NCBI GenBank assembly: GCA_963848295.1
Contig: CAWKDB010000010.1
Coordinates: forward strand, 4,320,001 to 4,384,000
Length of the DNA stretch: 64,000 nt
Direction: 5' to 3'
Source of the DNA: an uncultured delta proteobacterium
GTDB taxonomy: Bacteria > Myxococcota_A > Polyangia > Haliangiales > Haliangiaceae
The notes under the pieces were generated by a model. The model searched no databases and was not told the DNA's origin. It saw only the letters and a list, made by a program, of their open reading frames with translations. Numbering within the stretch: the first letter of the stretch is position 1; every line of letters begins with the position of its first letter. The position numbers and the translations under genes were made by a program. Positions 33,237 through 47,581 of the stretch are shown here, piece after piece.

Positions 33237-35165
33237 GTGATCATCCTCGAGATCCTGCAAGGCACCGCCGCCCAGCGCGTCTATCGGCTCGAGCCGTCGC
33301 GCGCGAGCGCCGCGACGATCGGTCGATCCCCCGCCAGCACCGTGCTGGTCACCGATTTTCATTTGTCCGGCGACCACGCTCAGATCACGCAGATCGGCGA
33401 GCGCTACGTGTTTCGCGACCTGCGGTCGACGAACGGCTCGGCGATCGAGCGCGACGGCAAACGGATGCCGGTCGACGCCGCGGCGCGCTGGGAGATCGCA
33501 CTCGAGGACGGCGACTTCCTGTTGCTCGGCAACGCCGCCGACCCGGTGCGGATCAGCGTGCGGTTCGCCGAGGAAGCCGACGACGATCTCGGCGAGCGGC
33601 TGATCGCATCGAAGTCGATCCTCGAGCTGCCGCAGATCACCGACCAGATCGAGGGCGATCCGGTCAGCGCGATGCGCGTTTACAAGGCGCTGCAACCGCT
33701 CGGCGCGCGCCTCGAGCCAGCCGAGGTGATCGATGCGACCGTCGCGGCGACGTTCGAGCTCCTGCCGCGCGCGACCCACGTCGCGGTGTTGCTGCGCTCC
33801 GACGCCGACAAGGACCGGTTCGCACTCGCGGTGTCGCGTCATCGCGGCGCGAACGTGCCGAAGGCGGATCCGGTGCGTGCTAGCCGATCGGTGTTGCGCC
33901 GAGTGCTGTCCGAGCGCGCCGCCGTGCTCACCGCGAACGCCCAAGAGGAGCTCGCGTCGAGCGACTCGATCATGGGGGGCCAGATCATGTCGATGATCGC
34001 GGTGCCGCTGTGGCGCGGCGACGACATCACCGGGCTGATCCAAGCCGACAATCGCTCGACCGCTGGGATGTTCACCGAGCGCGATCTCCAGGTCGCGCTG
34101 CTGCTCGGCGCGCAAGCTGCGCTCGCGATCGATAACGCGACGCTCGTCGGTCGGCTGAAGATCGCCGAGGAGCGAGCGCGCGGCGAGAACGTCTACCTCA
34201 AGCGGCGCGAGACCAAGATCCAGTTCGACAACATCATCGGTGGCTCGCCGGCGATGAAGGCGGTGCTGTCGCAGCTCGAGCGCGTGATCGATACGCGTGC
34301 GACGGTCTGCATCGAAGGCGAGACCGGCACCGGCAAGGAGCTGATCGCCGCGGCGGTGCACTACCAGTCGCAGCGCAAGGACAAGATGTTCGTCGCGCAG
34401 AACTGCGCGGCGTTGCCCGAGAACTTGCTCGAGTCCGAGCTGTTCGGTCACAAGCGCGGCGCGTTCACGAGCGCCGACTCCGACAAGAAGGGCCTGTTCG
34501 AGATCGCCGACGGTGGCACGCTGTTCCTCGACGAGATGGGCGAGATGCCGATGGCGCTGCAGGCGAAGCTGCTGCGCGTGCTGCAGGAAGGCACGATCCG
34601 CGCGGTCGGCGCGACGACCGAAAAGCAAGTCGACGTCAGGATCTTGTGCGCGACGAATCGCGATCTGTCGGCCGAGGTCGAGGCCGGGCGGTTTCGCCAG
34701 GACCTGTACTACCGCTTGATGGTGTTCCCGATCAAGCTGCCGCCATTGCGGGAGCGGCGCGAGGACATTCCCGAGCTCGCCGCGCATTTCTTGAAGCGCT
34801 ACGCCGCCGAATATCGCGTCGAGATGCCGGGGTTCACACCCGATGCGATCGACGCGCTGTGCGCCTACAACTGGCCGGGTAACATTCGCGAGCTCGAGAA
34901 CGAAGTGCAGCGGCTCGTCATCCAAGCCGAGTCGGGCCACTGGATCGAGTCGACCGATCTGTCGCCCCGGCTGCGCAAGATCGAAGGCACGGTGACGCGC
35001 GTCGCGCCGAAGCAAGGCACCCTCAAAGAGATGATGGAACAGGTCGAGCGCTGGCTGATCGCCGAGGCCTTGCGCGATCACGGCAACAACAAGACCCGGA
35101 CCGCGGCGACCCTCGGCATCACCCGCGAAGGCCTGCACAAGAAGCTCGCGAAGTTCGGGGTGTGA
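33237..35165 (+). CDS. Sigma54-dependent activator (FHA-GAF-AAA+-HTH)
   Basis: FHA IGR...LS..HA...[53 protein letters not shown]. Confidence 0.93.
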
Positions 35166-37220: not shown

Positions 37221-38333
37221 ATGGCCGAGGAGCCCCGACCAGGGTTGATCGTCGGCGGTCGCTACGAGCTGATCGACGTAGCCGGCCGCGGCGGCATGGC
37301 TGACGTGTGGCACGGCCGGGTGCGCGGCGACTCGGGCTTTGTCCGCGATGTCGCGATCAAGCAGATGCACCAGAACCTCGCGGTCCAGCCGGGTTATGTC
37401 GCGATGTTCGTCGAGGAAGCGCGCATCGGCTCCGAGCTCCAATCGCCGAACGTCGCCGAGGTCCACGACTTCGTCAAAGACGGCGGCAACTACTACATGG
37501 TGCTCGAGTGGATCGATGGCGTCGATCTCGGCACGTGGGTGCGCTGGCACGGCGCGCGCAACGAGCTGACCCGGTGGGAGCTCGTGGCGGCCGTCGGCGT
37601 CGGGATCTTGCGCGGGCTCGCGGCGGCTCACGAGCGGATCGGCCCCGATGGCCTACCGATGCCGATCGTGCATCGCGATGTTTCGCCGCACAACGTGTTG
37701 CTCACCACGCGCGGCATGGTCAAGGTCGTCGACTTCGGGCTCGCGCTCGCGCCGGATCGACCGCAAGAAACGACCGAGCCGGGCATCGTCAAAGGCAAGA
37801 TGTCGTACCTCGCGCCCGAGATCGTGGGCGGCGGCCGACCGGTGCCGGGCAGCGACCAATTCGCGTGCGGCTCGGTGCTGTGGGAGTCACTCGTCGGTCG
37901 CAAGTTGTTCGAAGGCGCGACCGACTTCGAAACCTACACGCGCCTGCGCGATTGCATGGTCCAGCCGTTGCGGCCGTTGCGGCCCGACGTGCCGCCGCCG
38001 TTCATCGCGATCATCCAGCGCGCTCTCTCGGCGAACGTCGACGCACGGTTTCCATCGGCGCGCGAGATGGCGCGCCAGGTCGGTACGGTGCTCAAGAAGG
38101 TCCAGCTGCGCAAGGATCTCCACACCGTGCTCGCGCGCAGCGTCGTCGAGGCGCGCGAAGGCATGGGGCTCGGGCCGCGCACCGGCGACCCATCGACCGC
38201 GACCCCGATCGCTTCGATCGTCCCCGACGACACGCCGCGGATCGAGCTGGCGCCGAAGCCGGAGCTCGGCACGCTCGAGAAGCTGCGCAGCCTGCGCCAC
38301 AAGCTGCCGTTCTTCGGCCGCAAGCGCGGCTAG
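37221..38333 (+). CDS. Serine/threonine protein kinase (cytoplasmic)
   Basis: GRGGMADV, VAIK, HRDVSPHN, DFG, YLAPE, DQF; no TM segment. Confidence 0.95.
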   Translation: MAEEPRPGLIVGGRYELIDVAGRGGMADVWHGRVRGDSGFVRDVAIKQMHQNLAVQPGYVAMFVEEARIGSELQSPNVAEVHDFVKDGGNYYMVLEWIDGVDLGTWVRWHGARNELTRWELVAAVGVGILRGLAAAHERIGPDGLPMPIVHRDVSPHNVLLTTRGMVKVVDFGLALAPDRPQETTEPGIVKGKMSYLAPEIVGGGRPVPGSDQFACGSVLWESLVGRKLFEGATDFETYTRLRDCMVQPLRPLRPDVPPPFIAIIQRALSANVDARFPSAREMARQVGTVLKKVQLRKDLHTVLARSVVEAREGMGLGPRTGDPSTATPIASIVPDDTPRIELAPKPELGTLEKLRSLRHKLPFFGRKRG

Positions 38334-38337
38334 GCGA

Positions 38338-39045
38338 CTACTCGACGCCGCCCTCGACGCCGGCGTCGCTGTCGCTCTCGTCTTTCGGCACCGGGCGGAC
38401 GTAGATGTCATCGACGCGCCAATCGTCCTGCTCGCGCCGTAGCACGATGCGATAGCGCACGCCGTTCTCGTCCCAGCGCAGCTCCGCGCGGTCGTTGCCC
38501 GGCATATCGATGTTGCTCGACGTGATCCGTCGCCCGAGGCCGGACAAGAAGCCCTGGATCTGGCGCGTGAGGCCATCGCGACGTCGCTCGGTGAGCACGC
38601 CGAGCACCGCGCCGATGTCGCGCCGCTCGATCGCGTCCGCGAAGATCCGGATCGCGTCGATCGGATAGCGCGCGTGGGATCGGCTGACCAGCTCGGAGTC
38701 GAGCCGCCAGTTGTGCCCTTCGCGTTCGACCTCGACGGTCTTGCCGTCCGAGTAGCGGACGAGCGCGCGCTCGCCCACGTCCGGCGTGCCTTTGAGGCTG
38801 TCCTCGAGCTCTTGCGCCTGGCGCGCTCGCTCGTTCTGGGTCTGCTTCCACTGCGCCGAGAACTCCTCGTAGCTGACCTGCTTGCGTGCGTCGCCGGCGA
38901 GCAAGTCGTAGGCCGCGTGGGCGTCGTTCGAGCGCAACGCGGCGATGTACGTGCGCACGCCGTCGGAGGCGGGAGCGCGCGGGCCGGTCGGGCCACCGCA
39001 CGCCGTGAGGGCGAACAGGGCGACGAGGGTGCAGAGCTTGGTCAC
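38338..39045 (-). CDS. Hypothetical lipoprotein with two NTF2-like units
   Basis: Lipobox LTAC; two units ending REGHNWRL and REQDDWRV. Confidence 0.75.
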   Translation of the reverse strand: MTKLCTLVALFALTACGGPTGPRAPASDGVRTYIAALRSNDAHAAYDLLAGDARKQVSYEEFSAQWKQTQNERARQAQELEDSLKGTPDVGERALVRYSDGKTVEVEREGHNWRLDSELVSRSHARYPIDAIRIFADAIERRDIGAVLGVLTERRRDGLTRQIQGFLSGLGRRITSSNIDMPGNDRAELRWDENGVRYRIVLRREQDDWRVDDIYVRPVPKDESDSDAGVEGGVE

Positions 39046-39073: not shown

Positions 39074-39088
39074 CAAAGCCACCGAAGC
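39074..39088 (+). repeat. Left copy of 15-bp direct repeat CAAAGCCACCGAAGC
   Basis: Identical to 45754-45768. Confidence 0.8.
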
Positions 39089-39201
39089 GCGTGATTGGTC
39101 GTTCAGTTCGTTGCGCACCAAACCAGGTAGTTTGCCGAGCGTGGTCGGTCAGAAGAGCTTGACGCAGGGTTGCTGGAAGCTCGACGCTAGTCGAGCCGAC
39201 C

Positions 39202-39729
39202 GTGCCAGCCAAGCCCCGAGCACGTGCTCCGAACGCATCGCGGGCCCTGCGTTACCAGCATCGCGAAGTGATTCGCAGGTTCTCGAAGGATTGGCACGTC
39301 CCTGAACGCGAGGCGCGCCAGCTCTTCGACGATGTGAAGCGATACTTGTGGCTGACGACGCGCACCCGCTACCTGATAGCGCCGCCGGCGAGAGCGATCG
39401 ACGAGATGTGGCATACGTTCCTGCTATTCACTCGTGACTACGAACGGTTCTGCAAGCGGTACCTCGGTAAGATGGTCCATCACGTTCCAGCCACCACGAG
39501 CGCACTCGCGGCGGACGCTCGTCGCCGCGCTCGCGACCCCGTGCGGTGGCGCAAGGACATGCTCAGCGTGATCCTCCGAGAGCGGCGACTCGCACTTGTT
39601 CATTTCGGCGAGCGAACAATGAACCGGTGGTACGAGACGTACCGGCATCGCTACACGGCGGGGTTCTTCGACCGCCGCCCGGCTCGAGACTCCAAGGGGC
39701 GGCGGGCGATAATCGCGGCGAAGGGATGA
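39202..39729 (+). CDS. Glycine-rich-domain (GRDP/DUF1399)-like protein
   Basis: KRYLWL...P...IDEMWHTFLLFTRDYERFC..YLGKMVHHVP signature. Confidence 0.75.
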   Translation: MPAKPRARAPNASRALRYQHREVIRRFSKDWHVPEREARQLFDDVKRYLWLTTRTRYLIAPPARAIDEMWHTFLLFTRDYERFCKRYLGKMVHHVPATTSALAADARRRARDPVRWRKDMLSVILRERRLALVHFGERTMNRWYETYRHRYTAGFFDRRPARDSKGRRAIIAAKG

Positions 39730-40268
39730 CGGAGCGCTCTCGGGCCACCGTATCGCAACGGGCGCTCGACCCACTCGCGATACTCGCGAATCTCCCACCC
39801 TTCGTAGAGGGTCCGAAGCTCGCCAGGGCCGAATGCATGGCCGACCCCCAGGTCTGGCGGGCCCACCGTGAAGGCCACCGCCACGTGAACCCCGCCGGGG
39901 GCCGTCATCTCGCGGTGGCGTTCCACCATGCGACGTGCCAGCCCGCGAGGAAGGTGATGCAGCAAGTTCACGATGCATACGAGGTCGATCGACCGGCGCG
40001 GGACATACGCGAGTGCGTCCCGAGCGGCGACGCGAATCGCGAGCCGGTTGAGCTTGGCTAGGGAGCGGATGCGCGTGGCGAGCTGCCGATCCCGCTCGAT
40101 CGCGATCACCTGGAAGCCGAGCATCGCGAGCAGGAAACTGTGACGCCCGAAGCCAGCACCGACATCGATCGCTAGCGGTGCGTCGCTACCGACGCGTAGC
40201 TGCGACGCCGCCTTCAGGACGTACGGCGACGGCCTGCGGGCCCCGTCGTAGACGAACTTGCTGGCCAA
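39651..40268 (-). CDS. Class I SAM-dependent methyltransferase (TehB-like)
   Basis: IDVGAGFGRHS..LA..GF.V.AIE, DL...VNLLHHL, TAPGG, F.PGEL..LYEGWEI..Y.E; TTG start. Confidence 0.85.
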   Translation of the reverse strand: MASKFVYDGARRPSPYVLKAASQLRVGSDAPLAIDVGAGFGRHSFLLAMLGFQVIAIERDRQLATRIRSLAKLNRLAIRVAARDALAYVPRRSIDLVCIVNLLHHLPRGLARRMVERHREMTAPGGVHVAVAFTVGPPDLGVGHAFGPGELRTLYEGWEIREYREWVERPLRYGGPRALRHPFAAIIARRPLESRAGRRSKNPAV

Positions 40269-40282
40269 CTAGCGCTGGCCAA

Positions 40283-40432
40283 CTAACAAGGATGGCAAAT
40301 GCGCTGTTCGGCGATGCCGCCCGCCGCAGCCTTGAGATCCGCCTCGGCGAGCTTGCGGAGCTTCTTCTCCTGCGCGGGCGTGGTCTTGGCCTTTGACCAC
40401 GACGCCTTCGTAGTGTGCTTCGACTTTTTCAT
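40283..40432 (-). CDS. Double-glycine-leader peptide precursor (49 aa), absent from the ORF track
   Basis: MKKSKHTTKASWSKAKTTPAQEKKLRKLAEADLKAAAGG-IAEQRICHPC*; MKK start; same strand as, and between, the receptor and methyltransferase genes. Confidence 0.8.
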   Translation of the reverse strand: MKKSKHTTKASWSKAKTTPAQEKKLRKLAEADLKAAAGGIAEQRICHPC

Positions 40433-40444
40433 AATCCCAGGGCT

Positions 40445-40460
40445 TGCAAGCGACTAACCA
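40445..40460 (-). promoter_or_regulatory. Candidate sigma54 (-24/-12) promoter for the peptide gene
   Basis: Minus strand TGGTTAGTCGCTTGCA = GG-N10-GC with TTGCA; the -12 C lies 14 nt before the ATG. Confidence 0.55.
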
Positions 40461-40534
40461 GATGCTGTCCCGGCGCTTTCCACGCCTTACACGTGTCGAG
40501 CTCTGCACTATCCGATCGTCGCTGCACAATCTGA

Positions 40535-43500
40535 TCACTCGCAGTGTAGTTCCAGCGCCGACATCGGCACCAGGCGCTGACCGGTGAGCTTGAGGGGAAT
40601 CCGGCAGCGAAGCAGGGTGTCGAGCTCCTGTGGCGTGCGCCGCTCGAGGGCGACATCAACCACCGAGAGCCGGCCCGCATCGTCGACGTACACGAGGCGG
40701 CTCCCGTCAGGACTGAAAGCGACACCGGTGATGAAGCCTTTGCCATCGCCGAACTGCGTCAACAGCTCGCCGCTTTCGGCATCGAGCACGTTCACGACGC
40801 CGTCGTCAGTACCGAGTGCGATCCGTCCGCCGTCCGGGCTGACATCGACCGAATAGCCGTCCGCCATCCCTCTGGTTCTCATCAGCTCGCGGCCGGATTC
40901 TGGGTCAAGGACATACGTGGACGACCCCGTAACCGCCACCAGGAACCGGCCGGACGGGCCGACCGCAAAGCTATCAAGCTCGCCCGGACCCGCGTACGAA
41001 TGGATCGAAGCGAGGGTACTCGCATCGAGAATCGAGATCGCGCCGCCGCTCTGCGCGACAACGATTCGCGCTGGGTTCTCGAGCACTGCGATCGCTACAA
41101 TGCCACCACCTGGCAGAGTCCGCGATCGACGAACTGCACCCGCTTCGACGATCGCCACGCTTCCTCCGCTCGTCGCGACCGCGAGTCGACGCTCATCGAG
41201 ATACCTGATGCCCGTCACCCGACTGCCGAGAGATGCAGAGTCGACGGTGTTAGAAAGTGTGAACCCTAGCATTCGCACTCTGTCTTGATTGGCGACTGCA
41301 TAGCCGGTCGACGACGGAGAGAAGTCGCCGGAGGCAGACATCGACGACGCAGCCAGCCGATCGACCGAGTTGGGAGCCGGATCGCGGACGACGGGGGTGA
41401 CCGGCGCTTGGGTCTTAAAATCGTACACGAACGCAGGACCGTCCCAGCGTTGGACGAGCACGCGCGTGGAGTCCGACGAAAACCGAACCGACGATGCACC
41501 CGACGGAAACCTCAGCAAGACTCTGCTCGTATCGGCCGAGGGGTCGACGATCGCAACCGTTCGATCCGTGGATCCGGTAGCGAGGGATTGACCGTCTGGC
41601 GAGAACTCCAGCCTCGTGACCGCGCCGCTGTGTCCGAAGTCGCGATAGCGCTCGATGCCCGACACGGGATCCCAGATTCGCGTGGTCCGATCGACCGATC
41701 CGGTTGCGAGTCGCTTCCCATCTGCGCTCCAGGCCAGCGCGATGACGTATCCCTCGTGGCCGTTGAGCGATGACAGCAAACGCCCGGTGTCAGCATCCCA
41801 GACCTTGGCGGTGTGATCGAGACTTCCAGTAGCGATCCGTCGCCCGTCGGGGCTGAAGCTCGCGCGAATTACATCGCCGCTATGGCCGGCGAGCTCCCTC
41901 GATGCACCGGTGTCGATATCCCAGACGGTGACCTTGGTGCTGGAGTCGGGTACGGCGAGCACCTTTCGGCTCTCCGCACTGATCCCCACCGCATGCACGC
42001 GGCCCGAAACGTCGAACTGTCGCTGAAAGCCCGAGGTCGAATCGACCACGAGCGCGCCTGCTTTGACAGCGACCGCGATCCATGCGCCGGAGGTCACGAT
42101 CGTCTCGGTGCCTCCTTCGACGTCGGTGAGATCCGCTGCCACGTCTCGAACCAGGGCGCCGTCGATCGTGAACACGCGAATCACGTGGCGCCTGCCGTCG
42201 GAGATCGCCACAGCGGAGCCGTCATCGAGCAGTCGGGCCACGGCATCGTCACTCGCATCGAATTCGCGCACGAGGCGCCAATGATCGGTCTCGAAGATCG
42301 CGGGGCGTCGTCCGCGCGACACGAGCGCGTACCTTCCGTCCGCGGACAGGTCGACATCGATTCGAGACTTACCGAGGTCCTGCGATGAGATCCGCTTCCA
42401 GGTCTTGGTATCCCAGAGCTGCACCAGGCCGGAGTTGTCCGCCGTGCACAGACGTCGTCCATCGCGACTGTAAGACAGTCGATCTACCCAGTTCTTGTGC
42501 CCGGTGAGGATCACTCGATGAGCGCCGAGAGCTCGCACGGCGGTGCCCAAGAGGAATCGGACGTTTGATGTCGCGAGCCCTTGCCGGTACGCTTCTGCGA
42601 GAAACACGAGCGACTCGTCGAAGTGACCTCTAACCAATGCTTGTCGGCCCTGCTCCATCAACATGCCGAGGTTGCTGGCACGCAGCGCCGCAGCATTGTG
42701 CTCGGTCGCACGATTCGCACGCCACAGGCCGACGACGAACACCGCCGCGACGAGGAGCGCCATCGCGATCAGCGCGCGGCGGATCCGCCGGCCGCGCAGC
42801 GAGTCCGCGACGCTCGCTTCGCCAAAGGCGGCTTCGGCGGGCGTCAATCCATCGGGATGGCGCTTGCGCCACACCTGGTATTCGGCGAGCGCGTCGCCGC
42901 GCCACAACAAGCCGCGCGCTCGGCCCCGGGCGTCCCATTGTCTCGCCGCCGCGCGCAGCTGCTCGTGGAAGCGCGAGCCTTCCGCGTCTTCGAGACGCCA
43001 TTCGACGAGCCGCGGCCACGCGCCGAGCAGCGCCTCGTGCACGATCTCGATCACCGCGCCGCCCTCGGCCTCCGAGGTCACGACCAGCCGCGATTCGATC
43101 AACCGCTCGATCACGCGCTCGGCCTCGGCGCTGCCGCCGAGCAACGCGAGTAGCTCGGCGCGGGCGAGCACCGCACGCGTGCCTTCGGAGGTGGTCAAGT
43201 GGCGGAACGCCTTGCGCACGAGGGCGCGCTCGGACGGCGGCAGCGCGTCCACCGTGTCGTCGGCGTGACGCGCGAGCGCGCCGGTAACGCCGCCGATGGC
43301 CTCGTACGCCTTCTTCGGTATCTGGTGGAAGTGGCGATCGCGCAGCTCCCACCAGCGCGTCGCGGTGAACGAGATCAGCGCGACCGCGGCCGGCGTATCG
43401 CCAGCATCCGCAACGATGCGGGCGGGCAACTGCGGATCGTCGAGCTCGTAGCCGGCCCGGCGAAGCGGCTCGACGATGATCCGCTCGAGCGCGGCCGGCG

Positions 43501-45721
43501 CGAGCGGGCCGACCAGCTGCAAGCCGCGAGCGAGCGCGAGGTCGAGCCCGGGCAGCTGCTGTGCCCGGATCAGAAAGTCGTCGCGCAGCGTGATCGCGAC
43601 GCGGATCCGATCGTCGACCGTCGGAGCGAGTAACAACTCGACGAACCGCGCTCGCTCGTCAGCGCTCGCTCCGAGTGTGAATAGCTCTTCGAATTGATCG
43701 ACGACGATTAGCAGGCCGCGCTCGCGCGTCGCCTCGCGCAATCGCGCGAGGACGTTGTCACCCGCGCCGATCGCGATGCCCACGTGCGCGAGTTGCCCGA
43801 ACAAGTGCGCGAGCGGCGAACGGCCAGGGCGCGTGGTCGCGACCTGCCAGCCGTCGAGCGCCGGTGCGACACCCGCGTGGACGAACGAGCTCTTGCCGAC
43901 TCCGGACGGGCCAACGATCGCGACGAGCGGCTCGAGCTTGAGCCGATTGACGACGATGTCGGTCTCGCGCTCGCGGCCGAAGAACCCGGCGGCGTCGGCC
44001 CGGGTATACGACGCGAGGCCCTTGTACGGACTGTCTTCGCTCGGGCCTTGTTGCGCTTCGCTGTCGTCGCGGAACAGCTGATCGCGGAACCAATCCCACA
44101 GCGTGTCGTCGCGATGCTCGAAGTTGTGCGGCAGCGACGTCAAGCGCGCACTCGCCCGCGCGGGACCGGCGAGCAGGAACAGCTGATCGGTGTGGCCCGG
44201 CACTGCGAGCTGGACTTGCATCAGCGGCCAGGGCGCGAGCAGCGGTATGCCGGCGGCGTCGATCACGACCGGCTGGCCCTCGGGTAACGCGCGCGCGAGT
44301 GGCACGCTGCGCCGCGGCCCGGTGCGCGTGCCCATCCAGACCTCGCCGAGCGGACCGCGCGGCACGACGACCTGGTAGGCGTCGAGAAACCCAAGCGCGC
44401 GGAGCAACGACGCGATCACGGGCAGCTCGCGCACGATCGATTGAATCGCCGCTTCTTCGCTGACCTCGCCTAGCGCCTCCGCGAGCGTGCCCTGCAGCGC
44501 CGGCGCGAACGCGTGCGGGCCCGACGTCGGATGCAGCAGCAGTGCGAGCTCGGGAATCGGATAGGTGTCGGGCAGCCGTGCGAACGGCTTGGTCAGCTCG
44601 TCGGCGAGCGCGATCCAGCCGGCCGGCGTCAGGCCTTGGCGGCGCAAGTCGCGCAGTAGATCGCGCGCGCGGGGAGAATCCTGTGGCGCTCCACTGCCGA
44701 CTCGCGTGCGGCAGGCGAGCGCGAGGATGCCGACGTACCACGCCGAGATCCGCACGATGCCGCGCATCGCTTCGCGCGCTTGGTGCGCGTTCTTGGCGGC
44801 GTCGTAGCTGGCGACGGCATCCGCGATCGGCTGCGGTGCGTTCGCGAGTGCCTGAACGCGGAGTTCTTCGTCGAGCTGGGGCAGCTCGATCGTTGTCGAG
44901 CCGATGCCGGCGGCGTCCCGAAAGGCTTGCGCGAGCTCGAGCACGTTGCCGAAGCGTTCGGCTGGCTTCTTCGCGAGCGCGCGAGAGATGACCGCATCGA
45001 GCGCCGGCGGAAATCCGTCGCCGAGCGGCGCGACCTTACCTCTCGCGTGGGCCCGTGCGATTTCCATCACCGTCGCACCGGTGAATGCGAACCGACCGGT
45101 CAGCGCTTCATACGCGAGGGCTCCGAGCGCGTATTGGTCCGCCGGCGCGCCTGCGTGCTTCGCGTCGATCCACAGCTCGGGTGCCATGTACGCGGGCGAG
45201 CCGAGCACACCGCGAGTCGATGCGGGCGCTTCGTCCGCGGTCGCGCGCGCGATGCCGAAATCAAGCAGCTTCGGCAGCAGCCTACCCGCGCGCGAAATCA
45301 CCATCACGTTGTCGGGTTTCAGGTCGCGATGGATGATCCCCTGCTCGTGCGCGGTCTGCACGACCTCGCAGATCCGCTCGAGCAGCGGCACGAACCGCTC
45401 GATCGGCATCGGCCCCTGCGCTTCGCTGACCTCGCGCAAAGAGGCACCGCGCACGCGCTCCATCGCGATCCACAACGTGCCGTCGGGTTCCGCGCCGAAC
45501 GCGTAGATGTGCGCGGCGTAGGGGTGGTCTAGGCGCGACGCGAGCTGCGCTTCGCGCAAGAAACTGTCGACTCGCGCCGGATCGCCCGCCTCGCGCAGCA
45601 GCTTGACGATCGCTTCGCGATGCAGCGCGCTCTGTTCGGCTAGAAAGATGTCGCCGAACCCGCCGGAGCCAATCTGCTCGCGCAACACGAAGCCGCCGAG
45701 GCTGCGGTCGCCGTCAGGCAT
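40535..45721 (-). CDS. Ser/Thr kinase - STAND NTPase (nSTAND1-like) - TM - WD40 repeat protein
   Basis: GSGGFG, HRDLKPDN, DFG, YMAPE; PYKGL...FFGRE, GPSGVGKSS, VVDQFEELFT; TM ALIAMALLVAAVFVVGLW; many GH...FSPDG...WD repeats. Confidence 0.92.
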   Translation of the reverse strand: MPDGDRSLGGFVLREQIGSGGFGDIFLAEQSALHREAIVKLLREAGDPARVDSFLREAQLASRLDHPYAAHIYAFGAEPDGTLWIAMERVRGASLREVSEAQGPMPIERFVPLLERICEVVQTAHEQGIIHRDLKPDNVMVISRAGRLLPKLLDFGIARATADEAPASTRGVLGSPAYMAPELWIDAKHAGAPADQYALGALAYEALTGRFAFTGATVMEIARAHARGKVAPLGDGFPPALDAVISRALAKKPAERFGNVLELAQAFRDAAGIGSTTIELPQLDEELRVQALANAPQPIADAVASYDAAKNAHQAREAMRGIVRISAWYVGILALACRTRVGSGAPQDSPRARDLLRDLRRQGLTPAGWIALADELTKPFARLPDTYPIPELALLLHPTSGPHAFAPALQGTLAEALGEVSEEAAIQSIVRELPVIASLLRALGFLDAYQVVVPRGPLGEVWMGTRTGPRRSVPLARALPEGQPVVIDAAGIPLLAPWPLMQVQLAVPGHTDQLFLLAGPARASARLTSLPHNFEHRDDTLWDWFRDQLFRDDSEAQQGPSEDSPYKGLASYTRADAAGFFGRERETDIVVNRLKLEPLVAIVGPSGVGKSSFVHAGVAPALDGWQVATTRPGRSPLAHLFGQLAHVGIAIGAGDNVLARLREATRERGLLIVVDQFEELFTLGASADERARFVELLLAPTVDDRIRVAITLRDDFLIRAQQLPGLDLALARGLQLVGPLAPAALERIIVEPLRRAGYELDDPQLPARIVADAGDTPAAVALISFTATRWWELRDRHFHQIPKKAYEAIGGVTGALARHADDTVDALPPSERALVRKAFRHLTTSEGTRAVLARAELLALLGGSAEAERVIERLIESRLVVTSEAEGGAVIEIVHEALLGAWPRLVEWRLEDAEGSRFHEQLRAAARQWDARGRARGLLWRGDALAEYQVWRKRHPDGLTPAEAAFGEASVADSLRGRRIRRALIAMALLVAAVFVVGLWRANRATEHNAAALRASNLGMLMEQGRQALVRGHFDESLVFLAEAYRQGLATSNVRFLLGTAVRALGAHRVILTGHKNWVDRLSYSRDGRRLCTADNSGLVQLWDTKTWKRISSQDLGKSRIDVDLSADGRYALVSRGRRPAIFETDHWRLVREFDASDDAVARLLDDGSAVAISDGRRHVIRVFTIDGALVRDVAADLTDVEGGTETIVTSGAWIAVAVKAGALVVDSTSGFQRQFDVSGRVHAVGISAESRKVLAVPDSSTKVTVWDIDTGASRELAGHSGDVIRASFSPDGRRIATGSLDHTAKVWDADTGRLLSSLNGHEGYVIALAWSADGKRLATGSVDRTTRIWDPVSGIERYRDFGHSGAVTRLEFSPDGQSLATGSTDRTVAIVDPSADTSRVLLRFPSGASSVRFSSDSTRVLVQRWDGPAFVYDFKTQAPVTPVVRDPAPNSVDRLAASSMSASGDFSPSSTGYAVANQDRVRMLGFTLSNTVDSASLGSRVTGIRYLDERRLAVATSGGSVAIVEAGAVRRSRTLPGGGIVAIAVLENPARIVVAQSGGAISILDASTLASIHSYAGPGELDSFAVGPSGRFLVAVTGSSTYVLDPESGRELMRTRGMADGYSVDVSPDGGRIALGTDDGVVNVLDAESGELLTQFGDGKGFITGVAFSPDGSRLVYVDDAGRLSVVDVALERRTPQELDTLLRCRIPLKLTGQRLVPMSALELHCE

Positions 45722-45744
45722 TCCCGCCCGCGAGAGTAACGCCT

Positions 45745-45784
45745 TAGAAATAGCAAAGCCACCGAAGCACCATGCTTCGGTGGC
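45745..45784 (-). terminator. Intrinsic terminator (minus strand); contains the right copy of the 15-bp direct repeat
   Basis: GCCACCGAAGCA-3nt-TGCTTCGGTGGC 12-bp stem at 45758-45784, followed on the minus strand by TTTGCTATTTC. Confidence 0.8.
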
Positions 45785-45955
45785 CCCTCTCCGCTGCGTG
45801 GCCGTCCGTCAACAATCCGGCAGCGAGGAGTATGACGAGCGTTATTGCGAGGCGGATGCCATGTCGGATCGGAGGCGCAACCGCGTAAGTGGGTGCATTT
45901 CCGAGCCAAGCGTGAACGGCGGTTGACTCGGTGAGGTGTGAAACGCGGCAGCAGA

Positions 45956-47545
45956 CTATCCGCGCGGGCCGTCGGTCAGCTGGATCTCGGAGTGCTTCGC
46001 CTCCGGCAGCTTGTCGGGGTAGTCGAGCGTGAAGTGCAGGCCGCGCGATTCCTTGCGGCGGCGCGCACTCTCGATCATCAGGTGCGCGACGAGCGCGAGG
46101 TTGCGCAGCTCGACCAGATCGCTCGTGATCTTGAAGTCGATGTAGTACTGGCGGATCTCGTCGCGCACGACCTCGATCCGGTGGCGCGCTCGCTCGAGTC
46201 GCTTGTCGCTGCGCACGATGCCGACGTACGACCACATGAACCGGCGGATCTCTTCCCAGTTGAGGGTCACGACGATCGCGTCGTTCGAGTCGGTCGCGTC
46301 GTCGCTCGACCACGGCGCGATGTGCGACGGGCGATGGCGCTGCGCTCCGCGCACGGCTTCGGCGGCGCGCGACGAGAACACCATGCCTTCGAGCAGCGAG
46401 TTCGAGGCCAACCGATTCGCACCGTGCAGCCCGGTCGCCGCGCACTCGCCGATCGCGTAGAGCCCGGGCACGGTCGTCTCGCCGCGATCGCCGGTCTTGA
46501 CGCCGCCGCAGCTGTAGTGCGCCGCCGGCACGACAGGGATCGGCTGCTTCGTGATGTCGATCCCGAGCGACAAGCAGCGCTCGTAGATGTTCGGGAACCG
46601 GCCGCGCACGAACGCGGGATCGAGATGGGTCATGTCGAGGAACACCGAGTCCGCACCCGACTTCTTGAGCTCGTTGTCGATGGCACGCGCGACGATGTCG
46701 CGCGATGCGAGCGACTTCATCGGGTGGTACTTCTCCATGAACGTCTCGCCGCTCGCGAGCTTCAACACGCCGCCTTCGCCGCGCAGCGCCTCGGAGATCA
46801 AGAACTGACCCGCGTGCGGGTGATAGAGCACCGTCGGGTGAAACTGGATGAACTCGAGGTCGGAGCACGCGGCGCCGATGCGATACGCCATCGCGACGCC
46901 GTCGCCGGTCGCGACATCGGGATTCGACGTGTAGATGTAGACCTTACCTGTACCGCCGGTCGCGAGCACGGTCGCGCGCGCGCACACGGTCTGGACCTGG
47001 CCGCTGCGGCAATCGAGCACGTACGCGCCGATGCATGCCGGATCTCCGCCGTACTTGGCGAGCGAGAGCAGATCGACCGCGATGTGGTTCTCGAGCACGG
47101 TGATGTTCGAGTGGCTCGCGACCGCCGCCATGAGCGCGCGCTGGATCTCGCGCCCGGTGACGTCCTGCCAGTGGACGACGCGATGGCGGGTATGCGCACC
47201 TTCGCGGCCGAGATCGAGCTCGCCGGCTTGATCGCGGGCGAGCCGGACGCCGAGATCGAGCAAGCGGCGCACCTGAGCCGGCCCTTCGGTGACGCACAGC
47301 TCGACGATCTTGCGATCGCACAGGCCGTCGCCGGCGGCGAGCGTGTCGGCGACGTGTTGCTCGAAGCTGTCGTCGGGGGCGAGCGCGGCCGCGACCCCGC
47401 CTTGCGCCCAGTTCGTGTTGGTGTCGGCCTCGCGCTTCTTCGTGACGACCACGACCCGGCCGTGCTCCGCCGCGAGCAGCGCGAAGTTGAGGCCGGCGAT
47501 GCCGGACCCGATGACGAGATAGTCGCACTCGAGCGCCTCGGACAT
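45956..47545 (-). CDS. nadB: L-aspartate oxidase
   Basis: IGSGIAGL, WAQGG, EGAH, ATGG, QFHPT, LISEALRGEG, PAAHY.CGG, GLHGANRLASNSLLEG, ESRGLHF. Confidence 0.97.
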   Translation of the reverse strand: MSEALECDYLVIGSGIAGLNFALLAAEHGRVVVVTKKREADTNTNWAQGGVAAALAPDDSFEQHVADTLAAGDGLCDRKIVELCVTEGPAQVRRLLDLGVRLARDQAGELDLGREGAHTRHRVVHWQDVTGREIQRALMAAVASHSNITVLENHIAVDLLSLAKYGGDPACIGAYVLDCRSGQVQTVCARATVLATGGTGKVYIYTSNPDVATGDGVAMAYRIGAACSDLEFIQFHPTVLYHPHAGQFLISEALRGEGGVLKLASGETFMEKYHPMKSLASRDIVARAIDNELKKSGADSVFLDMTHLDPAFVRGRFPNIYERCLSLGIDITKQPIPVVPAAHYSCGGVKTGDRGETTVPGLYAIGECAATGLHGANRLASNSLLEGMVFSSRAAEAVRGAQRHRPSHIAPWSSDDATDSNDAIVVTLNWEEIRRFMWSYVGIVRSDKRLERARHRIEVVRDEIRQYYIDFKITSDLVELRNLALVAHLMIESARRRKESRGLHFTLDYPDKLPEAKHSEIQLTDGPRG

Positions 47546-47581
47546 GCGTGGGCGGACCATAGCGCGTTACGATGGGCGCGG

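Follow-up and report, generated by a model that had tools for sequence, protein, structure and literature searches.

The peptide signalling known from bacteria, most of it Gram-positive, relies on histidine kinases or on RRNPP receptors in the cytoplasm, and ComC/ComAB/ComD/ComE, BlpC/BlpH/BlpR and nisin/NisK/NisR are among its peptide pheromone or autoinduction cassettes. The bacterial STAND proteins characterised so far are known mainly as phage sensors. For Planctomycetota and myxobacteria, the available part of PMC11032199 describes Ser/Thr kinases that sit in the membrane and bear a periplasmic WD40 array. We analysed a window of 64,000 nucleotides from an uncultured delta proteobacterium, a soil myxobacterium (GCA_963848295.1, contig CAWKDB010000010.1, positions 4,320,001 to 4,384,000), in which a 6.7-kb island carries genes for a receptor with kinase, STAND and WD40 parts, a small peptide with a double-glycine (GG) leader, a methyltransferase and a convergent UCP032817-like protein (Table 1). 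These four open reading frames (ORFs) occupy the whole island, and all of them were found where an earlier, sequence-only reading of this DNA had placed them. The island represents a single allele of a receptor-plus-peptide system that extends across the family Kofleriaceae.

The cytoplasmic region of the receptor was matched in 128 of 138 family genomes, many of the weaker matches being generic nSTAND1 proteins. From 150 of the 475 matches we drew 60 high-scoring loci, selected by receptor similarity alone and leaving out rows from the island's own genome, three loci already in the set, truncated ORFs and loci with scant downstream DNA; 59 could be scored, one having no downstream DNA. By a rule that was fixed, but written post hoc after a first look at the loci, a GG-leader ORF lies no more than 600 nt downstream of the receptor at 33 of the 59 and no more than 3.5 kb downstream at 40, against 1.6% and 8.7% at random positions. 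Spacing is mostly within about 220 nt, across several genera. Applied to the own genome's other kinase ORFs, the same rule picked out 7/195, and applied to nSTAND1 proteins that lack the receptor's unannotated domain, 2/33; on this last ground we take the domain to mark the peptide-linked receptor subfamily. A cross-validated hidden Markov model (HMM) of the leader found a peptide at 32/59 loci at a background of 0.7%, with upstream peptides at six more, so that rule, HMM and one assignment by eye together place a peptide near about 47 of the 59 receptors, although related genomes in these counts are not independent samples. In a metagenome set, one of four scorable receptors with the unannotated domain satisfied the rule and a second had a peptide upstream by the HMM, while inspection of the own genome shows a GG peptide no farther than 2.3 kb from each of its seven such receptor loci. 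The sequence-only reading had made its proposal depend on a receptor-peptide linkage recurring in other genomes, and at 33/59 loci it does recur.

The island also records an exchange of parts. At the same site in a relative (G117), the receptor is followed by a different peptide, with a 9-residue core, and then by the lipoprotein gene, with neither a methyltransferase nor a UCP032817 gene; a metagenome contig 99.5% identical to G117 carries the same allele. The two receptors are 87% identical in the kinase, 91% in the unannotated domain and 92% in the STAND domain (87-93% across the cytoplasmic parts, 91% for the cytoplasmic half), and past the STAND domain identity falls to 64% in the transmembrane (TM) helix and 33% in the WD40 part, the DNA likeness ending at 42716, by the end of the TM helix. 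In trees, the cytoplasmic part of the query pairs with G117, and its WD40 part joins L141, L142 and L143 (SH support 100), the three other receptors that lie beside a UCP032817 gene and a GG peptide. Approximately unbiased (AU) tests reject the alternative placements (p 1.9e-39 and 2.6e-6), for 16 selected rows of 69 and with groups defined after the first tree had been seen, and the WD40 grouping counts as one event, because the three loci are kin. Sensor, peptide and tailoring genes have been exchanged as one module at the TM helix. The step in codon usage agrees with such a swap, as GC content at third codon positions (GC3) is 0.85 in the cytoplasmic half and 0.73 in the WD40 part; it is 0.75 in the convergent gene, 0.75-0.81 in the enzymes and 0.89-0.92 in the host flanking genes. 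The lower GC that had been remarked on from the WD40 part to the convergent gene holds for these two (0.64 each) and not for the methyltransferase, whose GC of 0.68 is host-like, yet its GC3 is 0.81. A second genome appears to carry the query's allele, with relatives of the receptor, methyltransferase and UCP032817-like protein at 87-96%.

The receptor had been called NLR-like and was expected to use something other than a histidine kinase. The STAND NTPase and the Pkinase domain uphold this, and the comparison with a cytoplasmic NLR does not hold, since a TM helix, overlooked in the sequence-only reading, precedes the sensor at about aa 982-1000. A hydropathy window of at least 1.6 lies between STAND and WD40 in 69/69 aligned homologues. 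Because this helix separates the two domains, the WD40 sensor is probably periplasmic and outward-facing, as judged by hydropathy. At least two Cys occur within the final 45 residues in 51/68 receptor homologues.

The precursor has a 10-aa core with two Cys and no Ser or Thr, and its leader, with Leu at -15, -12 and -7 before GG, follows the double-glycine pattern; an NCBIfam search gave no curated model match for it. A sigma-54-type motif (score of at least 5 of 8 against the consensus) lies upstream of 16/37 peptide genes, the query's included, where shuffles give a mean of 0.52 and a maximum of 3; the controls were 11/415 for other genes and 5/66 for receptor upstream regions. In 10 of the 16, again including the query's, the motif stands 13-15 nt before the start codon, and the query's peptide transcript would be near-leaderless. 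As for export, which had been supposed to pass through a C39 transporter, the own genome proved to hold a single one, intact and outside the island, on contig C2 with HlyD, TolC-like and LanB-like genes. It is 62-66% identical to the exporters of four receptor-linked loci. Directly after the exporter gene lies an ORF that by eye resembles a group II intron reverse transcriptase (C2:794426-796393, minus strand). Four further GG-leader peptides are encoded in the own genome away from this receptor type, at C10:2562936-2563142, C10:2866493-2866711, C10:2999764-2999976 and C1:21845-22012; two adjoin LanC-like genes and two adjoin other Ser/Thr kinases.

Cores and tailoring enzymes vary from locus to locus. 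LanC-like genes occur at 18 of the 60 receptor loci and a second LanC type at 3, a C39 exporter at 6, outer-membrane efflux genes at 5, LanB at 5, metallo-beta-lactamase-like genes at 6 and a flavoprotein at 3, with B12 radical-SAM (S-adenosylmethionine) and MNIO genes once each. Signalling partners recur as well: a full-length FHA-sigma-54 activator is present at 15/60 loci, against 6 copies in the entire own genome, and a second-kinase family at 15/60, against 4. Just beyond the island lie a host FHA-GAF-sigma-54 activator (window 33237-35165, plus strand) and a host Ser/Thr kinase (window 37221-38333, plus strand), each a possible partner in trans. At six loci (L162, L165, L173, L176, L180 and L194), which form a subtype, a metallo-beta-lactamase-like gene (505 aa) is conserved and the precursors contain many paired CxxC motifs. 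Three others, L145-L147 of genus g31, combine the receptor with UCP032817, a kinase and an FHA-sigma-54 activator, L146 having an S8 protease in addition; their small Cys-bearing ORFs appear to be led by signal peptides rather than GG leaders, and these loci are possibly a Sec-exported variant.

It follows that the four genes of the island do not travel as a conserved unit, since UCP032817 is found at 0/60 receptor-selected loci and the methyltransferase had no tblastn match in loci L141-L216. The linkage of receptor, peptide and enzyme that had been predicted does appear from the other side, with a receptor adjacent at 6 of 13 wider family UCP032817 loci; three of the six have GG peptides and three the small Cys-bearing ORFs that appear signal-peptide-led. 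The label GRDP-like/DUF1399 first given to the convergent gene had to be dropped, as no Pfam match to it was obtained in the query or 21 family members and the protein is annotated as PF27765, although one homologue carries the NCBI name 'glycine-rich domain-containing protein'. Invariant residues are D67, H71, C84 and H94, the predicted model is all-helical (pLDDT 85.5), and a search for a solved fold in the family found none. UCP032817 is present in 22/138 family genomes. Across phyla, a Cys-rich GG peptide lies within 1.5 kb at 9/47 full-length UCP032817 loci and in 5/94 flank windows, 4 of these 5 belonging to the same clusters as the loci; a C39-ABC-like exporter is found within 4.5 kb at 18/80 loci and a methyltransferase at 14/80. 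At many other loci, judged by eye, there are short Cys-rich ORFs whose leader helix is similar. The protein is best read as a putative precursor-binding or precursor-modifying protein.

In Shewanella, Cellvibrio and Pseudoalteromonas, UCP032817 is accompanied by C39 exporters and by Cys-rich GG precursors in tandem (L020-L140 set, e.g. L064, L066, L082, L088, L116 and L129), and at L090, L108 and L130 it has a Cys/Gly-rich C-terminal tail of its own, resembling a substrate fusion. Loci of UCP032817 with Cys-rich precursors are a candidate undescribed class of ribosomally synthesised, post-translationally modified peptides, or RiPPs. For the methyltransferase, the search gave just two homologues, while TehB-like genes are present in L141-L143 and L152; its role as a tailoring enzyme is putative and the least supported of our assignments.

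We suggest, leaning towards this account rather than holding it firmly, that an exported, modified peptide is read by its own receptor and feeds back on sigma-54 transcription. The precursor would be transcribed from its sigma-54-type promoter, where the motif is observed, and its two-Cys core may be tailored by the UCP032817-like protein and the methyltransferase. Cleavage at GG and export would follow in trans through the C39-ABC/HlyD/TolC proteins of the genome, whose genes are present and whose substrate we presume. The mature peptide would then bind, in the periplasm, the WD40 propellers of the neighbouring receptor, which is the weakest step. By analogy with known STAND proteins, the STAND domain could oligomerise and activate the N-terminal Ser/Thr kinase. 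The kinase, directly or via a second kinase, may make a phosphothreonine mark read by an FHA-domain sigma-54 activator, which would have the peptide gene and further targets transcribed more strongly; here the gene linkage is observed and the wiring is conjectural. Module exchange at the TM helix would yield strain-specific channels, of which the own genome, with its seven loci, could hold several. A wider generalisation, to which we give slightly less than an even chance, is that Kofleriaceae use transmembrane NLR-like kinase-STAND-TM-WD40 receptors for chemically diverse, self-made ribosomal peptides, in several private FHA-sigma-54 autoinducing channels per genome re-specified by module swap, with UCP032817 as a new peptide-modifying family.

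Several observations weigh against signalling of this kind. No nearby peptide was found by rule, HMM or eye at about 12/59 receptors; four of the seven own-genome paralogues are split into two or three ORFs, through assembly indels or decay; and 7/13 family UCP032817 loci have no receptor. The island has no exporter, second kinase or activator of its own, and its receptor gene stands behind a terminator without an evident promoter. Because C39/HlyD/TolC delivers outside the outer membrane, the peptide must re-enter to meet a periplasmic sensor. The precursor gene is linked to the receptor with co-varying alleles, though the global covariation signal is weak: core similarity correlates with WD40 identity at a Spearman coefficient of 0.15, and with identity of the cytoplasmic part at 0.04. 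Nor is the module swap proof of ligand-receptor pairing, because neighbouring genes are carried along with one another irrespective of what they do.

The peptide might instead be the output, an antibiotic or metal-chelating RiPP, made when the receptor senses a competitor, prey, phage or metal and acts via sigma-54. The linkage of receptor and peptide would be accounted for equally well, as would the sigma-54 motif and the presence of activator genes; LanB/LanC, radical SAM and MNIO are tailoring genes of bioactive RiPPs, UCP032817 with Cys-rich peptides is widespread without this receptor, and counter-invader systems are where nSTAND1 was defined (PMC8195603, in the part available). Yet several cores of 8-12 residues have no adjoining tailoring gene, that of the sister allele among them, and fit signals better than weapons, and sensor type tracks peptide-system type across the recombination point, so that we regard an output role as unlikely, though a serious contender. 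A device for conflict between kin and non-kin, in which the peptide serves as a weapon or marks identity while the receptor gives self-immunity, or arrest or death on meeting a foreign peptide, seems to us improbable. That the distal module is polymorphic, can be swapped and sits on an island would suit it, as would the several loci in one genome, and STAND switches often drive cell death (bioRxiv 10.1101/2023.09.22.558884, in the accessible part); here, however, a kinase linked with activators of transcription is the effector, nuclease and pore-forming domains are absent, and the PADLOC matches, in the 25 of 33 that were listed, are restricted to the generic kinase domain. It is also conceivable that receptors and RiPP genes merely gather in shared insertion hotspots with no functional coupling, given the unrelated 1.9- and 11.9-kb inserts at this site in 2/19 relatives and the free variation of tailoring genes among loci. 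That idea is largely refuted by the recurrence counts, the kinase and nSTAND1 controls and the leader HMM; with tight spacing at 33/59 loci across several genera, a pairing specific to one receptor subfamily and an in-frame domain swap precisely at the membrane helix, we think it very improbable.

The 6.7-kb block is an insertion into a conserved small-RNA gene, at its 3' end. The 15-bp direct repeat that the sequence-only reading had seen at its borders is there, in exactly two occurrences in the 7.78-Mb genome, and its role, which that reading had not recognised, is that of the 3' terminator arm of the RNA. In relatives, an element of about 90 nt with two hairpins is conserved in the gap between the nadB-like and lipoprotein genes, with compensatory changes in 8/28 base pairs; the first hairpin is nearly invariant, with GGA motifs in and near its loop, and the terminator covaries. 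A sigma-54-type motif stands 47-51 nt upstream of the RNA core in 25/25 loci, and an Rfam search gave no match for the candidate. The core pattern was found in 68 of 90 genomes of the genus and had no occurrence in the other genera searched; the window's own copy fails the pattern through a one-base insertion. One locus in the small-RNA set comes from an unpublished genome, G010, on which no result rests. The lipoprotein gene directly follows the small RNA in 19/19 relatives with both flanking genes on one retrieved stretch, and the gap from nadB to lipoprotein gene is 256-635 nt in 17 of them. The other two carry unrelated inserts on the nadB side of the small RNA (11.9 kb in L018 of G017, 1.9 kb in L019 of G018), so this site acquires DNA repeatedly. 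The flavoprotein gene in this flank is presumably nadB. Integrative elements at RNA-gene 3' ends share the duplicated target 3' end and the empty sites in relatives; they would be expected to bring an integrase of their own, and there is none among the island's four ORFs.

Table 1. Features of the island and its surroundings. Positions are those of the window, except where a contig of the own genome (G000) is named.
Feature	Position	Strand	Basis
Receptor, 1728 aa, kinase–unannotated domain–nSTAND1–TM–WD40	40535..45721	-	ORF, Pfam, alignment
Hanks-type kinase domain (Pkinase), aa 13-258, HRD and DFG intact	44948..45685	-	Pfam, alignment
Unannotated domain, aa 280-560	44042..44884	-	neither Pfam nor PADLOC match
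nSTAND1 NTPase with intact Walker A and B motifs, aa 565-936, PF20703 E 1.7e-98	42914..44029	-	Pfam, alignment
Single TM helix, about aa 982-1000, after Arg-rich stretch	42722..42778	-	hydropathy
WD40 beta-propeller region, aa 1061-1728, foreign codon usage	40538..42541	-	Pfam, alignment, codon usage
Sigma-54-type motif, 13 nt upstream of peptide start codon	40445..40460	-	motif scan
Peptide precursor, 49 aa, double-glycine	40283..40432	-	ORF call, leader searches
SAM methyltransferase, TehB-like, 205 aa, putative tailoring enzyme, gene end overlapping the convergent gene by 79 nt	39651..40268	-	profile matches
UCP032817-like (PF27765) all-helical protein, 175 aa, convergent	39202..39729	+	family annotation
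15-bp direct repeat, left copy, 3' arm of small-RNA terminator	45754..45768	.	repeat search
15-bp direct repeat, right copy	39074..39088	.	repeat search
Small RNA candidate, hairpin and intrinsic terminator (45755-45787), insertion target	45741..45834	-	conservation, covariation
Sigma-54-type promoter (GG-N10-GC) of small RNA, host sequence outside insert	45846..45861	-	conserved spacing
nadB-like flavoprotein, host flank gene	45956..47560	-	Pfam, relatives' gene order
Lipoprotein-like host flank gene, directly after small RNA in relatives	38338..39045	-	comparison with relatives
Split receptor paralogues	C2:313733-319070, C2:724425-729981, C10:350317-355616, C10:4158825-4163662		

We found no description of this receptor-peptide system in the literature, supplements, which could bear on its novelty, lying outside the coverage. 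The pairing across the family points to a putative, undescribed cell-to-cell signalling system. If this is right, it would supply a ligand class for orphan kinase-WD40 membrane receptors, show a STAND switch serving self-signalling across a membrane and offer, in myxobacteria, dozens of cognate pairs of sensor and peptide as a code open to testing. Some of the lanthipeptide and radical-SAM RiPP clusters of myxobacteria would also gain a role, with UCP032817 as a candidate new tailoring enzyme.

Each of the closest described systems shares part of this design. The kinases of PMC11032199 likewise have a cytoplasmic kinase, a single TM helix, a periplasmic WD40 array and a lineage-specific expansion; the available part of that paper names no STAND domain, ligand or linked peptide gene. 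As far as the accessible parts of PMC8195603 and bioRxiv 10.1101/2023.09.22.558884 describe them, the nSTAND1 counter-invader and Avs proteins share an N-terminal effector, a STAND NTPase and a variable C-terminal repeat sensor, whereas here the TM helix would place the sensor outside the cytoplasm, a self-encoded exported peptide is linked and the output is apparently transcriptional. Membership of the antiviral Avs type was rejected on that helix, seen by hydropathy before the sensor in every aligned homologue, and on the kinase-only PADLOC matches noted above. LanB and LanC link the receptor loci to class I lanthipeptides, and 3 of 10 receptor-linked precursors tested exceed the NCBIfam cut-off for the class I leader (NF038153); the query fails it, its core lacks Ser and Thr, its island lacks Lan genes, and class I lanthipeptide identity was rejected for it.

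The logic would be akin to that of ComCDE or nisin autoinduction. ComCDE, Blp and nisin share with the present loci the GG-leader precursor, the C39-type exporter (ComAB), the adjacent membrane receptor kinase, the allelic peptide-sensor types and the positive feedback that we infer here. Membership of two-component peptide quorum sensing (ComCDE/agr/NisKR) fails on receptor class, Pkinase with nSTAND1 and WD40. Those systems use a histidine kinase and a response regulator; here, a Hanks-type Ser/Thr kinase is joined in one protein with a STAND NTPase and WD40 propellers, with the FHA-sigma-54 activator as its recurrent partner, and these receptor and relay components have no homology to the histidine kinases and response regulators of ComCDE or nisin. 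The host, moreover, is Gram-negative, with many paralogous channels per genome and interchangeable RiPP chemistries.

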